The notes below the pieces were generated by a model. That model searched no databases and was not told the origin of the DNA. It saw nothing but the letters and a program-made list of their open reading frames with translations. A stretch of DNA of 64,000 nucleotides from assembly GCA_963782055.1 (NCBI GenBank), contig CAWAIF010000003.1, positions 2,752,001 to 2,816,000 on the forward strand. Reading direction: 5' to 3'. Each line of letters starts with the position of its first letter. Positions within the stretch are counted from its first letter, which is position 1. Position numbers and translations under genes: made by a program. Source of the DNA: an uncultured delta proteobacterium (GTDB lineage Bacteria > Myxococcota_A > Polyangia > Polyangiales > Polyangiaceae). Positions 10,245-15,044 of this stretch are shown here, piece by piece.

Positions 10245-10501
10245 CGCCTGCCTCGAGCGTCTCGCCCGTCTGCGGTAGGCCCACATCGGAACGACGGCCT
10301 CGGAAGAGCTGACGCCGCGCGCGCAGCACCTGGCACGGGCACGCAACCCGTTCGCGCCCGCGCGGCATGCTCGACCTCGGCAGCGCGGGGACTGGGGCTC
10401 GAAGGCCATGCGCTCGGCGCTCGGCTTCCGGTGCATCGACGACCACGTCGAGCCAGCCGTTCCGTGCCACCCACCGAGCCGTTCGGGGATATCGTCTGCA
10501 C

Positions 10502-12100
10502 ATGGACGACATCCCCGCGGACACCCTCCGGAAGCTTCGCCGCCTGACCGTCGAGGCCGACCAGCTCATCGAGGCCTGCGTGCGCGACCGGCTCTCCCTG
10601 GGCGCGCTGATGGGGCGCTTCCTGCCGGCGCTGGGGAACTGGATCGGCGTGAAGGGCGCGCTCGTCACCACGCGCAACGAGCACCTCGTCGAGGAGACGT
10701 ACACCTTCGGCGAGTGGACGCTGCTGGGCGGCGCCGACCTGCATCAGGAGGAGGAGCTGCACGCCGTCGTGGTGGGCAGCGGCACCTCGATGTGGATGAA
10801 GCTCTGCGTGGCGGGCGTCGAGGTCGGCCGGCTGGCGGTGCTCATGCCCGGCGATCGTCAGGCCGACGAGGCGGAGCTGCGCCTGCTCCTCGAGACCGTC
10901 TGCGCGGAGCTGGACGTCGTGCTCTCCACCGTGCACACCGCCGCGCACAAGCAGCGGCTCGTCGTGGAGGTGGAGGAGCTGCTCACCGACGCCGTCTTCG
11001 ATCACGGCGTCGACGCCGCGGTCCGCGCGATCTACCGCGAGATCAAGCTGGTGGACTTCGCCCTGCTCTACCACGACGAGGTGGAGCGCGGCCGCTTCCG
11101 CTACCGCATCTACCATCACGGCGAGCTGAAGTACGGATTGGAGGGCCCGCGCCACGCGCAGCTCGACGCGGCCATGGCCGAGCGCGGCGACGAGCTGCTC
11201 GACCCCGCCTCGAGCCTCCTGCGCGAGGTGCTCGGGTCGCCTCGCGGCATCGAGGTGGTGCTCTCGACCGGGATGACGCAGTCACGCCGGCTCGGCAAGG
11301 TGGTGTGCGGCGCCGACGAGCAGGGCTTCTCCGCGTTCGCGCTGGACGTGGTGCAGCTCATGACCGAGGCGATGAGCCAGCGCCTGGTCGACTTCAACCG
11401 CGAGCGGCGCCACCTCGCGCAGTTCTTCGCGCCGAGCGTCATCACCGAGCTCCTCAACGACCCGGCCTACCACCAGCGCTACCTCACACCGCGCGAGGAC
11501 GCCATCGCCGTGCTGTACGCCGACATCAACAGCTTCACCAAGCTCAGCGAGCAGGTGCTGCAGCGGCCGGCGGCCATCGCCGAGTTCGTCAACCGCTGGA
11601 GCGCCGGCGCGGTGGACTGCCTGTGGGAGAACGGCGGCGTCTTCGACAAGATGGTGGGCGACTGCGTCATCGGCCTCTTCGGGCCGCCCTTCTTCCGGGA
11701 CGCCCCCGCCGACCGCGCCGTCGCGGCGCTCAAGGCGGCCGCCGGCATCGCCAGCTTCACCGCCGCGCTCGGGGGCGAGCCCCCGTACGACGCGATCGCG
11801 CGCTCCGGCGTGGTGCCTGGGCTGGGGGTCGCCATCGGCCTCAACCTGTGCCCGATGGCGGTCGGGCTGCTGGGGCCCAACCAGGACTACACCGGCTTCT
11901 CCTCCGGCATGAACAGCGCGGCCCGCCTCCAGTCGCTGGCGGGGTATCGCGAGGCGCTCGCGATGGAGTCGGTCTGCGAGGCGGTCCGCGGGGTCGACGA
12001 CGACTTCGTGCGGCGCCTGGAGCTCGGCGAGCTGCGCGAGACGCCGGTCAAGAACGTGAAGGAGCCGATCCGCTACCGGAAGGTGACCTTCCCGGCCTGA
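10502..12100 (+). CDS. Class III adenylate/guanylate cyclase with N-terminal sensory-like region
   Basis: LYADINSFT, FDKMVGDCVIGLFG, DYT, MNSAARLQ, VKNV. The K and D residues suggest ATP specificity. ATG lies 6 nt after TATCGT. Confidence 0.88.
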   Translation: MDDIPADTLRKLRRLTVEADQLIEACVRDRLSLGALMGRFLPALGNWIGVKGALVTTRNEHLVEETYTFGEWTLLGGADLHQEEELHAVVVGSGTSMWMKLCVAGVEVGRLAVLMPGDRQADEAELRLLLETVCAELDVVLSTVHTAAHKQRLVVEVEELLTDAVFDHGVDAAVRAIYREIKLVDFALLYHDEVERGRFRYRIYHHGELKYGLEGPRHAQLDAAMAERGDELLDPASSLLREVLGSPRGIEVVLSTGMTQSRRLGKVVCGADEQGFSAFALDVVQLMTEAMSQRLVDFNRERRHLAQFFAPSVITELLNDPAYHQRYLTPREDAIAVLYADINSFTKLSEQVLQRPAAIAEFVNRWSAGAVDCLWENGGVFDKMVGDCVIGLFGPPFFRDAPADRAVAALKAAAGIASFTAALGGEPPYDAIARSGVVPGLGVAIGLNLCPMAVGLLGPNQDYTGFSSGMNSAARLQSLAGYREALAMESVCEAVRGVDDDFVRRLELGELRETPVKNVKEPIRYRKVTFPA

Positions 12101-12139
12101 GGATCACTCCGCCTCGACCCGCGCCCGCCGAACTTCGGC

Positions 12140-12145
12140 TACCAT
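12140..12145 (+). promoter_or_regulatory. Putative -10 element of a leaderless transcript (host gene of the intron)
   Basis: TACCAT followed by 7 nt and then ATG (12153); no SD; same geometry as at least 7 other genes in the window. Confidence 0.55.
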
Positions 12146-12722
12146 CGCGGCCATGGTGCGCCGTGAAGAAGCAGGTCGTCCGTCGGGCATGCCCGACGAA
12201 CGACCTGCCTCAAGCTGCGCTTCTCCAGCGGGTGAGAGTCCCGCACCGGTAAGCGTCGGAGCGCCGGGTAGCAGGCCCCAGCCGAGCGGGAGAGATCCCG
12301 TCGGCCGAGCGGGGCGTCGAAAGGGTCCACGGACCGAGCGAGCACGCGGGCCGCAACATGAAGTGAAGCTTGCAGCCTCGTCAGATCTACAAACCGGGAG
12401 CCGAGCCGATCATGTCGCGGCGAAGGCAATATCGGCGGCGCCAGATCCGAAACGCGCCGTCGGTCCCGGCGGGGTAGGGAGCGCAGCACGCGTGCAAGGA
12501 GGAGTGCGGAACTCGGGAGGCCCGTCTGCGTCGCCCTCGTCGGGGCAAGGCGCGTCGTATAAGCCAGAGGCGAAGTCGGCCGCTGCGCAGCGGGAGTCCG
12601 AGGGGGTCACTGTACCGAAGAGCGAGGCGCGAGCTTCGCGAACGAACGCCGTGAAGAACAACGCGGCAGGAGGGAAAGACCCCTGCAGTGGTCGTGTCGG
12701 CGGAGCAGGTAAGCGCGAGGGC

Positions 12723-14072
12723 ATGGCCGGCGAGACCGGTCCCAACCACCCCCATCGGCGACAGCCCATGGACAAAGTGCGACAACTGCAACGCCGGCTG
12801 TGTGCCGCGGCCAAGCGGCATCCGGAGCGCCGATTCCACGCGCTGTATGACCGCATCGCGAGGCGTGACGTCCTCGCGGAAGCGTGGAAGCGGGTAAGGA
12901 GGAACAAGGGAGCCGCGGGCGTCGATGCCCAGACGATCGCGGCGCTCGAGGTGTACGGAGTGGATCGACTCCTCGGAGAGATCCATGACGTGCTCCGTGC
13001 AGGCAGGTACCGGCCGGCAGCGGTGCTGCGCCGGTACATCCCGAAGGCCGATGGGAAGAAGCGGCCGCTTGGGATCCCGACGGTCCGAGACCGGGTGGTG
13101 CAGATGGCGACGAAGCTCGTGCTGGAGCCGATCTTCGAGGCGAGCTTTCGCTCGTGCTCGTACGGCTTCCGTATCGGGCGGAGCGCGACGGACGCCCTGG
13201 AGACGCTGAGGAAGCTCGGCGCGAAGGGGTACAACCACGTGCTCGACGCCGACATCCGTGACTACTTCGGGAGCATCGATCACGACAAGCTGATGAAGCT
13301 CGTCGAGCGGCGCATCTCGGACCGGAGGGTGCTCAAGCTGCTGCGGCAGTGGCTCACGGCGGGGGTGATGGACGAAGGCACGGTGACCAACCCCTCCAGC
13401 GGCACGCCGCAGGGCGGGGTGATCTCGCCGCTGCTCTCGAACATCTACCTCGCCGTGCTCGACGACGTGTGGACGAAGCGGTGCGCGCATCTTGGCGAGC
13501 TGGTTCGTTATGCGGACGACTTCGTCGTGATGTGCAGGACGAAGCGTGACGTCGACGAGGCCGAGCTTCGCGTGAAGCACGTGATGACGCGACTCGGGCT
13601 TGAGCTGCACCCGGACAAGACGAGGAAGCTGGACCTCTCCTGGGGTAAGAAGGGGTTCGACTTCCTCGGCTGCCACCTGCGGAAACGCTTGAGCGGGTCC
13701 ATCTGGGAGAGGTCGCGCAAACGCGTGTACTTCCTCCAGCGCTGGCCATCGGCTCGCGCGATGAAGCGGATCCGGCAGCGCGTGAGGGACCTCACCCCGC
13801 GATCACGCTGCCACGCGGACCTGCGCGACGTCGTCGCGCAGCTCAACCCCGTGCTGCGTGGCTGGGGCGAGTACTTTCGCACCGGGAACGCCGACGTGAA
13901 GTTCAACCGACTCGACGAGTACGTGTACGAACGGCTTCGAGCGCTGCGCCTGAAACGGGCCGGCTCGAAGCTCAAGGCCGGACAAGCCGAGCGCTGGACC
14001 CGCGACTACTTCGTCGAAGGCTTCGGGCTCCACCGCCTGCGCGGGACCATCCGCTACCCGGAGGCCGCGTAA
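12723..14072 (+). CDS. ltrA: Group II intron reverse transcriptase/maturase, no C-terminal endonuclease
   Basis: RFHALYD, NKGAAGVD, IPK.DGKKRPLGIPTVRDRVVQ, SYGFR, DADIRDYF, GTPQGGVISPLLSNIYL, RYADD, FDFLG, LNPVLRGW.EYF (X domain). Alternative start at 12768; the frame is open back to 12153. Confidence 0.95.
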   Translation: MAGETGPNHPHRRQPMDKVRQLQRRLCAAAKRHPERRFHALYDRIARRDVLAEAWKRVRRNKGAAGVDAQTIAALEVYGVDRLLGEIHDVLRAGRYRPAAVLRRYIPKADGKKRPLGIPTVRDRVVQMATKLVLEPIFEASFRSCSYGFRIGRSATDALETLRKLGAKGYNHVLDADIRDYFGSIDHDKLMKLVERRISDRRVLKLLRQWLTAGVMDEGTVTNPSSGTPQGGVISPLLSNIYLAVLDDVWTKRCAHLGELVRYADDFVVMCRTKRDVDEAELRVKHVMTRLGLELHPDKTRKLDLSWGKKGFDFLGCHLRKRLSGSIWERSRKRVYFLQRWPSARAMKRIRQRVRDLTPRSRCHADLRDVVAQLNPVLRGWGEYFRTGNADVKFNRLDEYVYERLRALRLKRAGSKLKAGQAERWTRDYFVEGFGLHRLRGTIRYPEAA

Positions 14073-14096
14073 TGCCGCGTCACGAGAGACCACCGG

Positions 14097-14192
14097 TAAG
14101 CCGTGTGCGGGAAATCCGCACGCACGGTTTGAGAGGGGGTCTTGACTCCAACCGCCGCCGTAGGGCGGCCAAGGTGTAAGGATCTACCAATG
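14097..14192 (+). ncRNA. Group II intron domains V and VI
   Basis: AAGCCGTGTGCGGGAAATCCGCACGCACGGTTT has the AGC triad, GAAA loop and AC bulge. DVI stem is GGGGGTCTTGAC ... GTAAGGATCT-A-CC. Confidence 0.93.
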
Positions 14193-15044
14193 CGACGCCG
14201 GTTGGCTCACCCGATCGCCACACGTGCCCTCCTGGCGTCGCTCGCCGCGCTCGGCTTCGCGGCCTTCGCCGCGTGCCACGAGGACGCCCCCGGTCCCACG
14301 ACCGACCCGTGCGCGGTGCTCTTCGGGAGCCCCAACGACAAGACCGGGCTCACAGCCGACCAGTGCAAGCCCTCGTGTGCGTGCGGCGCGGACGCGTTCG
14401 CGCCGCCTGCCTACGACTCGGCGTTCGTCGATTCGCTGGTGAGCGACTGGACGCTGGCCACCCCCTTCGCTCCCGTCGACGTCGATCCCTACGCGTCGCC
14501 GGCCCCGGCGCCGGACTCTCCGGACACGGTGTGCGGGGTGCTGCCGCAAGGTCCGCCCGGCACCGTGCCGCGCCCCTACACGCTGGTGACGTACCCCTCG
14601 ATCGACGCCGCGAGCGCGGCGGGCGCGACGCCCACGCACTACGGCCGCTGCGGCGTGTGCTCGCCGCTGGTGGACCTGGCCGTGTACATGCGCGAGCAAG
14701 ATCTCGGTGGGCCGGCGCGCGCGTGCGGGCTCGTCGGCCTCACCGACGGTGGGGCGGCCAACGTCGCGTGCCTGGAGAAGCTGGGCTTCGACCACCCGTG
14801 CGCGCAGGCGTGGTACTGGGACACGCTCAACACGCGGAAGAACTGCCTGGGCATCTGCCTCGCCACGCCGGCGGTGCCCTACGAGGAGCCGGACGGCGCG
14901 CTCAACGCGTGCGTCCAGTGTGACGAGGACCAGAGCGGGCCGGTCTTCAAGGCGGTGGCCGGTCGCACGCGGCGCAACTCCGGATTGCCGACGGCGCTTT
15001 GTCGGCCGTGCTCGGAGGTCCGCCCGATCGTGCACGCGTACTGA
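14190..15044 (+). CDS. Cys-rich lipoprotein, intron host gene (spliced form join 12153..12155,14193..15044)
   Basis: Signal MRRRLAH...FAAFAAC; motifs THYGRCGVCS, CAQAWYWD..NTRKNC, CVQCDEDQSGPVFK.VAGRTRRNSGL. Confidence 0.82.
   Translation: MRRRLAHPIATRALLASLAALGFAAFAACHEDAPGPTTDPCAVLFGSPNDKTGLTADQCKPSCACGADAFAPPAYDSAFVDSLVSDWTLATPFAPVDVDPYASPAPAPDSPDTVCGVLPQGPPGTVPRPYTLVTYPSIDAASAAGATPTHYGRCGVCSPLVDLAVYMREQDLGGPARACGLVGLTDGGAANVACLEKLGFDHPCAQAWYWDTLNTRKNCLGICLATPAVPYEEPDGALNACVQCDEDQSGPVFKAVAGRTRRNSGLPTALCRPCSEVRPIVHAY

Follow-up and report, generated by a model that had tools for sequence, protein, structure and literature searches.

A group II intron lineage that ends in AUG and inserts behind start codons with a leaderless-type layout

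Where does a group II intron end when an ATG stands on both of its sides? This question is raised by a locus of an uncultured delta proteobacterium of the Polyangiaceae (assembly GCA_963782055.1, contig CAWAIF010000003.1). The window is the whole analysed stretch of 64,000 nucleotides, positions 2,752,001 to 2,816,000 of the forward strand, and all coordinates refer to it unless another scale is named. An earlier note, made from the letters of this DNA, had proposed a group II intron at 12156-14192 that homes to initiation codons and ends in AUG instead of AY. It had read both junctions exactly as they stand in the window: cggccATG/GTGCG at the 5′ side (12153-12160) and GATCTACCAATG/CGACGCCGG at the 3′ side (14181-14201), the slash marking the junction.

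We confirmed that the element is a group II intron. Its domains I to IV (D1-D4) were matched by the Rfam models RF02003 (12226-12361, 77.1 bits) and RF02005 (12374-12475, 55.8 bits), and D5/D6 by RF00029 (14096-14158, 44.2 bits against a cut-off of 40). Together, domain V and D1-D4 make up the ribozyme signature of a mobile group II intron. Domain IV carries the second mark of such an element, namely the intron-encoded protein (IEP), which has reverse transcriptase (RT) and maturase (X) domains; Pfam finds RVT_1 and GIIM only, and no endonuclease (En) domain, in the IEP at 12768-14072. The 5′ end, GUGCG at 12156, follows the consensus GUGYG, and the 3′ end is ...AAUG and not the canonical AY. 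The pairings between exon-binding sites (EBS) and intron-binding sites (IBS) were recovered by covariation for both EBS1-IBS1 and EBS3-IBS3, and A14186 lies in the range of 7-8 nt from the 3′ splice site that is usual for a branch point. The copy is intact, and judged from its sequence it looks active and recently mobile. The features that bear on the position of its ends are the following.

12156-14192, plus strand: group II intron of 2037 nt, GUGCG...CUACCAAUG, identified by Rfam, with the ends set by EBS1/EBS3 covariation
12768-14072, plus strand: conserved part of the IEP, RT and maturase (X), 434 amino acids (Pfam RVT_1, E = 4.9e-37; GIIM, E = 5.8e-17)
12152-12155, plus strand: IBS1 (CAUG), the end of the 5′ exon, made up of the base that precedes the start codon and the host ATG 12153-12155; it pairs with EBS1
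12411-12414, plus strand: EBS1, 5′-CAUG-3′, in the loop AUCAUGUCG, found by covariation
12477, plus strand: EBS3 (G), partner of the first 3′-exon base C14193, found by covariation
14193-15044, plus strand: 3′ exon, the host gene from codon 2 onwards, lipoprotein-like and without a Pfam family; C14193 is IBS3

With an ATG on both sides, four excision registers give an identical ligated product. Therefore, the flank sequence and the host frame alone cannot fix the intron ends. The host frame downstream of the intron is in phase with the terminal ATG and, once the 2037 nt are removed, with the ATG at 12153, so the earlier note was right that excision of 12156-14192 restores it. Its argument that this frame settles the ends by itself did not hold, since the four registers are equivalent in this respect.

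We turned to relatives of the intron. The IEP had relatives in 577 stretches of species-representative genomes, and the best 80 of the 577, with 56-90% identity, were retained. Represented among them are Myxococcota, Acidobacteriota, Planctomycetota, Pseudomonadota (Beta- and Gammaproteobacteria), Actinomycetota, Spirochaetota and others. The family set (n = 73) consists of the 66 of these 80 relatives in which both ends could be called plus seven copies of the source genome; loci L026, L029, L034, L042, L043, L057, L065, L066, L067, L068, L076, L080, L081 and L095 were dropped for a contig end or the lack of a match. A second, independent set was composed of metagenome contigs (L114-L193) from a targeted scan for introns with EBS1 = CAC. 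The unique-sequence subsets contained 69 sites for the target context, 62 introns for the reading frame, and 63 introns for D6 and the Shine-Dalgarno (SD)-like motif.

All 73 introns of the family set end in RUG (AUG in 67, GUG in 6), which follows CUACC or a close variant. At the other end, 63/73 begin with GUGYG and 10/73 with UUGCG or UCGCG (L070, L083-L088, L096, L099 and L100). The 5′ G seems dispensable for mobility, because identical U-starting copies occupy four sites in one actinomycete metagenome-assembled genome (MAG). The 5′ flank is ATG or GTG throughout, with the exception of L071, a Vicinamibacterales MAG locus in which AGG stands behind a normal TAGAAT box; here insertion may have been followed by decay of the host start codon, while the AUG of the intron stayed.

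One indication of the 3′ end came from G12477. Mutual information (MI) between this column and the base after the terminal G was 1.44 bits, the next best column having 0.44. By definition, EBS3-IBS3 involves the first base of the 3′ exon. The two bases were complementary in 69/72 genome loci (G:C 26, U:A 19, C:G 18, A:U 4, G:U 1, U:G 1) and in 36/38 of the independent metagenome loci. When column 12477 was slid against neighbouring positions, complementarity amounted to 33/73 for the U and 40/73 for the G of the terminal triplet, and to 25/68 for both the +2 and +3 positions. At least six independent switches of the pair were counted among introns that are at least 90% identical.

EBS1 places the other side of the insertion point. 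Position 12414 covaries with flank position −4 (G:C 53, U:G 8, C:G 4, and others; 93% paired), the R at −3 is always paired with U12413, and C12411 pairs with the G of the start codon, contiguous with the other IBS1 pairs. Introns with EBS1 = CAC stand behind GTG in 3/3 cases of the genome set and at 37/50 called metagenome sites. Because IBS1 and IBS3 are adjacent in the target, the insertion point lies between the start-codon G and the next base. We found no contact of the EBS2 type in the family set, where no intron column exceeds an MI of 0.31 with flank positions −5 to −13. The total pairing between intron and target is thus five bases, four from EBS1 (CAUG against (C)AUG) and one from EBS3 (against the base that opens codon 2).

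A further indication came from identical copies that share a genome. Their 5′ triplet differs, and their terminal triplet never does: in the source genome one copy (L009) has GTG where eight others have ATG, the copies L084-87 have two GTG and two ATG, and L091/L092 differ in the same way. Therefore, the 5′ triplet belongs to the host and the 3′ triplet to the intron. This observation bears on the possibility that the element had inserted ahead of the start codon, in which case the terminal ATG would be the host's original one and the element, ATG-GUGCG...CCA, would have brought the upstream ATG with it. The ligated product would be the same, and the enrichment of terminal GUG among introns whose EBS1 demands GUG (19/39 versus 3/70) would also be expected. 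However, the triplet that varies among identical copies is the upstream one, EBS1 pairs with the context of the upstream triplet at −4, and we know of no precedent for a group II intron starting AUGGUGCG. We give this explanation almost no weight.

The enrichment itself is strong. Terminal GUG occurs in 19/39 introns with EBS1 = CAC (in the metagenome set; L033, L083 and L094 also belong here), compared with 3/70 introns with CAU. A strict rule that the terminal triplet pairs with EBS1 was considered and rejected: the combination of CAC with AUG was found in 0/73 introns of the genome set, but the CAC introns of the metagenomes have AUG in 20 cases and GUG in 19.

The branch point was located on the last two domains of the ribozyme.

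14097-14131, plus strand: domain V with AGC triad (RF00029; fold)
14135-14188, plus strand: domain VI with a bulged branch-point A at 14186 (fold; geometry common to 60/63 unique members)

The minimum-energy fold of D5/D6 (−45.6 kcal/mol, z = −4.1) has a single bulged A14186 with two pairs beneath it and a 4-nt tail, AAUG. The same arrangement, with the bulged A as the seventh base from the terminal G, was found in 60/63 unique family members, as the earlier note had claimed for this copy.

This distance matters for a register shifted by one base, in which the intron would be G/GUGCG...CCAAU (12155-14191) and the start codon would be split as AU/G. Such a register yields an identical ligated product and a canonical AY 3′ end, and the ten UUGCG/UCGCG members would begin with G. 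A clade inserted inside a stop codon is also known, namely the groEL introns that split UA/A, as described by Gomes et al. (2025). On the other hand, EBS3 covaries with the base after the G (69/72) and not with the G (40/73), and the G that would become the first intron base is paired with C12411 of EBS1 beside the other IBS1 pairs. The branch A would be the sixth base from the end, whereas it is the seventh in Ni.ha.I1 and in the IIC consensus; J2/3, the junction of domains II and III, has C and not the A that a terminal U needs; and the GCG at positions 3-5 is aligned across the 5′ variants only when the register is not shifted. We consider the shifted register improbable.

From these data we take the intron to be 12156-14192, with G as its last base, because EBS3-IBS3, EBS1-IBS1, the triplets of identical copies and the branch-point distance all agree on it. 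The non-canonical terminus is based on covariation, and in this respect the proposal of the earlier note that the intron ends in G and not in AY was borne out.

The candidate partners of the γ-γ′ pair are listed here with the neighbouring domain.

12599-12601, plus strand: J2/3, C-G-A; C12599 is the proposed γ, within a UCCGA that is invariant in the family
14190-14192, plus strand: terminal AUG, in frame with the host open reading frame (ORF); G14192 is the last intron base and the proposed γ′; RUG in 73/73 loci
12602-12684, plus strand: domain III, from the consensus fold of 58 distinct sequences

The CGA of J2/3 is present as the earlier note had described. Its suggestion that γ = C pairs with a terminal G agrees with three outgroup introns that end in C and have G-GA in J2/3, the two positions being invariant within the family. 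In Ni.ha.I1 the aligned J2/3 position reads GUC-G-GA; an intron of a Rhodococcus plasmid has G-GA and the end UUUCAC; and an intron of a Bacillus thuringiensis plasmid has G-GA and the end ACCCGAC. L112 (S. meliloti pSymB) and L235 (A. ferrooxidans), which are without clear ends or the D3 motif, were left out of the outgroups. The comparison fits a swapped γ-γ′ pair, C-G here and G-C in the C-ending relatives.

The source genome (7.58 Mb, 72% GC) contains nine insertions, of which seven are full 2037-nt copies and two are disrupted. The full copies are at different sites and 100% identical in the BLAST table, yet at least one base differs among the copies. Their 5′ junctions read cATG in eight cases and cGTG in one; the 3′ junctions read CCAATG in 9/9, followed by C (8) or T (1). 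Since all nine insertions are behind ATG or GTG and all end in CCAATG, this is not chance: the observation is real and far beyond it. The homing to initiation codons proposed in the earlier note was found in 9/9 own copies and in nearly all of the 66 relatives with both ends called. Each of the nine downstream ORFs is in frame with the terminal ATG, with lengths from 20 to 515 codons. The host genes are varied (lipoprotein-like or secreted hypothetical proteins, a HEAT-repeat protein, a weak ATC_hydrolase match), and no housekeeping-like gene was found among the nine.

Start codons alone do not describe the target. Ahead of the host start codon in the window we found one more element.

12140-12145, plus strand: −10-like box TACCAT, a leaderless-type promoter element; spacing to the host start codon downstream, 7 nt

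The window target reads TACCAT-cgcggcc-ATG. At 64/69 unique sites of the source genome and the relatives, a TANNNT box is located 5-8 nt before the start codon, with a spacing of 6, 7 or 8 nt at 38, 18 and 7 sites, respectively. Elsewhere in the 60 nt upstream, TANNNT occurs at most once per position. An SD-like motif is found upstream of the start codon at 7/69 sites and is missing from the other 62/69. By comparison, only 419 of the 81,111 CRTGY sites of the source genome (0.5%) have a TANNNT box at 5-8 nt. We infer that the insertion sites have the layout of leaderless genes, in which transcription would start from the A of the start codon. Intron-less orthologues of the host gene exist in the same genus, and their layout, TACACT-gcgtttc-ATG CCG CGC (L103) and TAGACT-cgaggc-GTG CGA (L104), is that of the occupied window site.

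Five paired bases are far too few to account for an exclusive location at leaderless starts. It may be explained that the promoter is not actively targeted at all, and that the intron hits any CRTG/Y, after which only the copies behind leaderless starts express their IEP and multiply. The short pairing of 5 nt, with no other covariation between intron and target, agrees with such survivorship, as does the −10 spacing, which varies as in natural promoters and is not fixed; moreover, a copy elsewhere would be sterile, given that its IEP needs the host start codon. However, sterile copies would then be expected, yet 9/9 own insertions are at such starts when 0.5% of 81,111 sites qualify, no stray intron fragment was found elsewhere in the source genome, and the box is missing at only 5/69 sites. 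We regard this explanation as unlikely, although less so than a shifted register.

Active targeting of the promoter leads to a more specific idea, which we put forward tentatively and with clear doubt. The lineage would read a state and not a sequence, namely the promoter bubble that is melted at leaderless genes: the ribonucleoprotein would reverse-splice via CAUG/N alone into the non-template strand exposed by RNA polymerase from the −10 box to about +3. On the same doubtful footing, the intron might live wholly on borrowed signals, a host promoter and a 5′-terminal AUG, for its own RT and hand a spare AUG back to the host, and the termini of its core might have been re-wired in γ-γ′ (C-G), the penultimate U and the dispensable 5′ G. 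If this were true, transcription-initiation complexes would for the first time be the target of a retroelement.

The reading frame of the IEP is also tied to the host start codon. Two features are involved.

12153-14072, plus strand: continuous open frame of 639 codons that begins at the host ATG, crosses domains I-III and enters the IEP
14179-14182, plus strand: SD-like AGGA on the 3′ strand of D6, 7 nt before the terminal AUG

In 51/62 unique introns the IEP shares the phase of the host start codon. Up to the RT motif, frame 0 is free of stops in 49/62 and frames 1 and 2 in 0/62 each, with total stops of 52, 420 and 495, so a frame is kept open across some 205 codons of the ribozyme. Among the in-phase introns 19 lengths occur, each divisible by three. 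The M at 12768 (MDKV...) is not conserved, the column being mostly R (9), V (7), I (6), S (5) or L (4) in 48 relatives. On the simplest reading of these sequences, translation of the RT begins at the start codon of the host. At the other end of the intron, AGGA, GGAG or GAGG is located 5-16 nt ahead of the terminal start codon in 41/63 unique introns, and the terminal AUG may permit synthesis of the host protein on unspliced RNA.

Taken together, we think it likely that these introns form a distinct En-less group II lineage with an IIB-like ribozyme, which retrohomes between the start codon and codon 2 of promoter-adjacent leaderless genes. In the proposed course of events, the host promoter would start transcription at the A of AUG. 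Ribosomes would load on the 5′-terminal AUG and read through domains I-III into the RT/maturase. The IEP would then assist splicing, restoring a leaderless mRNA of AUG and codon 2, and would also assist mobility. Insertion would cost little, as the earlier note had also supposed, because the terminal AUG, with an AGGA-type motif ahead of it in two thirds of the members, would allow host protein to be made from unspliced RNA. Insertion probably takes place into the lagging-strand template, as in other En-less introns. The own-genome copies are on the plus strand at 1.99-3.17 Mb and on the minus strand at 4.46-6.98 Mb, and the switch coincides with the maximum of the cumulative GC skew near 3.5-3.6 Mb, a distribution that fits insertion into the lagging-strand template.

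Several points speak against this explanation or against parts of it. All support lies at the level of DNA sequence, and the transcription start, the spliced junction, the lariat and the fusion protein are predictions. The leaderless assignment is drawn solely from the −10-like box and its spacing; a sigma-70 scan of 11800-14600 that required both hexamers gave no hit, and such a scan is uninformative for this GC-rich organism. γ and γ′ are both invariant in the family, which makes covariation within it impossible; the outgroup support for the pair consists of three introns only; and in an RNAalifold consensus fold of D2-D3, C12599 can pair with G12508 in D2. The 10/73 introns that start with U would gain a canonical 5′ G in the register shifted by one base. 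The frame is broken or shifted in 13/62 introns, which may have decayed, and the SD-like motif is missing in 22/63 introns and so is not universal. The strand bias of the copies is confounded by the general co-orientation of genes and replication.

The host gene and the surroundings of the intron deserve a short description. The host frame downstream of the intron, CGA CGC CGG..., encodes MRRRLAHPIATRALLASLAALGFAAFAAC, a lipoprotein-type signal peptide. Upstream, a gene of 577 amino acids (10367-12100, plus strand) with a weak match to the adenylate/guanylate cyclase catalytic domain (E = 9.2e-05) stops 52 nt ahead of the host start codon. Contigs of soil metatranscriptomes (four runs) span only 12215-14138, without joints or flanks, and are uninformative on splicing and transcript ends. 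Near the 5′ end of the intron one variable part was noticed.

12171-12208, plus strand: variable 5′-subterminal hairpin of 38 nt at the base of domain I; its length and sequence differ among relatives, and nhmmer alignments skip it

A match to the Rfam sRNA P37 (Pseudomonas) at 12167-12230 on the minus strand (33.7 bits, below the cut-off of 50) is this hairpin read antisense.

Three other own-genome copies have peculiarities. At C3:4455606 (L003) only 20 codons follow the terminal ATG, which may represent a small leaderless ORF or may not be a gene. The copy L008/L012 (C3:5377583-5381151) is broken within D6 by about 1.5 kb with an IS66-family transposase gene (DDE_Tnp_IS66, E = 1.5e-34), and ten bases are repeated at both junctions of this IS66-type insertion. 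The copy L009-L011 (C3:2503249-2504075 and 2517650-2518302) has an internal deletion at intron positions of about 775 to 1340; its 3′ part is about 14 kb off on the other strand, as if an inversion had had a breakpoint within the intron.

Compared with the earlier note, the leaderless-promoter context, the fusion of the IEP frame to the host start codon and the ambiguity of the register are additions of the present analysis. Group II introns are regarded as ending in AY, with an R-Y γ-γ′ pair, almost without exception, and a large, mobile UG-ending lineage in several phyla, some members of which start with U, indicates that a re-wired terminus is tolerated by the active site; pipelines for boundary prediction that are built on AY will mis-call such introns. 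Specificity for leaderless starts on 5 bp of pairing poses a clean question of how a retroelement recognises genomic context. The introns would also mark leaderless genes in poorly studied phyla, and the lineage could inspire gene-tagging tools that insert without silencing.

As far as the literature was searched, the targeting habit and the translation strategy are not in print. We found no description of group II introns at leaderless start codons, of AUG-ending group II introns or of bacterial IEPs read from a host start codon, Michel et al. 2007 and Simon et al. 2008 lying outside the scope of this search. The review of Zimmerly and Semper 2015 contains 0 occurrences of ‘start codon’ or ‘initiation codon’, and passage searches of the 2013 and 2015 compilations gave no link between such introns and start codons or leaderless genes as targets. 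Abebe et al. 2013 refer to unpublished new classes with boundaries missed by their profiles. Three database entries annotated as ‘putative non-coding sequence’, So.us.I2, Mx.xa.I1 and Sg.ce.I1, have a similar size and similar host taxa and may belong to the lineage. The lineage is widespread and apparently undescribed.

Among known systems, the introns tied to start and stop codons are the first to be compared. For the codon-associated IIB1/CL1 clade (Avi.groEL, EcKTE56.groEL), insertion at start or stop codons has been described (Michel et al. 2007, via PMC12584367 and PMC4465626; Gomes et al. 2025). According to Gomes et al. (2025), its members have a CL1 RT with endonuclease, a 5′ insertion of 300-700 nt, and an SD of their own with a UUG start in subdomain IVa; their EBS-IBS pairings are long, and their hosts are housekeeping genes. 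As far as these sources go, both groups are tied to such codons, and insertion recreates a functional codon in both. In contrast, the window intron is without an En domain and has only the 38-nt hairpin instead of the 300-700 nt insertion; the reading frame of its IEP continues that of the host start codon, its pairing is 5 nt, the hosts of its copies are non-housekeeping genes, and its 3′ end is UG. Of the marks of IIB1/CL1 membership, codon-adjacent insertion is present, and a CL1 RT with C-terminal endonuclease and the large insertion are both absent.

By IEP identity, the nearest catalogued relatives are Ni.ha.I1 of class F (40%) and other plasmid-borne En-less introns (34-38%). The work of Simon et al. 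2008 is reportedly among the references for class F and the En-less varieties. The lineage shares with class F an IIB-like ribozyme, a D1-D3 region that can be aligned, a D6 of similar form whose branch A is seventh from the end, and the lack of an En domain. Unlike it, Ni.ha.I1 ends in CUCUAC (CUCGACUCUAC), has G-GA in J2/3 and is not located behind a start codon. Toro and Martinez-Abarca 2013 (with Table S2) and Nagy et al. 2013 are the sources for class F and the En-less varieties g1-g4, and in this literature the class F introns studied end in AY and pair through EBS1 and EBS2 over 5 bp or more. The present lineage differs from these members in its UG end, an IBS1 of 4 bp and the absence of EBS2 covariation. 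These introns seem to form a clade of their own, because IEP identity within the lineage is at least 56% (best 80 of 577) compared with 34-40% to class F/g1-g4 IEPs, the value for Ni.ha.I1 being 40%; these are pairwise figures only.

Class C (IIC) introns resemble the lineage in another way. They insert after terminators or attC, so that their target is defined by context (PMC12584367), and their 3′ boundary consensus is CCUACYCGAU with the branch A seventh from the end (PMC4028801). A very short IBS1, no EBS2, an En-less IEP and a target that is genomic context and not a long sequence are common to both. However, the context of IIC introns is a DNA hairpin at the end of a transcription unit and not a promoter-adjacent start codon, and the IIC IEP has its own start. 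The present sites are start codons behind −10-like boxes, and the 3′ end, CUACCAAUG, is not CCUACYCGAU. The D5 triad and J2/3 of IIC introns are probably also different from those of the window intron.

Finally, the yeast mitochondrial introns aI1 and aI2 have an RT ORF in frame with the upstream exon. The likeness is that the IEP continues the frame of the upstream exon through ribozyme sequence. The difference is that aI1 and aI2 are organellar IIA introns within a long coding exon, whereas the ‘exon’ here would be the single start codon of a leaderless bacterial mRNA. Thus, an RT read from a host start through the ribozyme would be the bacterial counterpart of the in-frame organellar intron ORFs, and it would couple the expression of the intron to leaderless translation.

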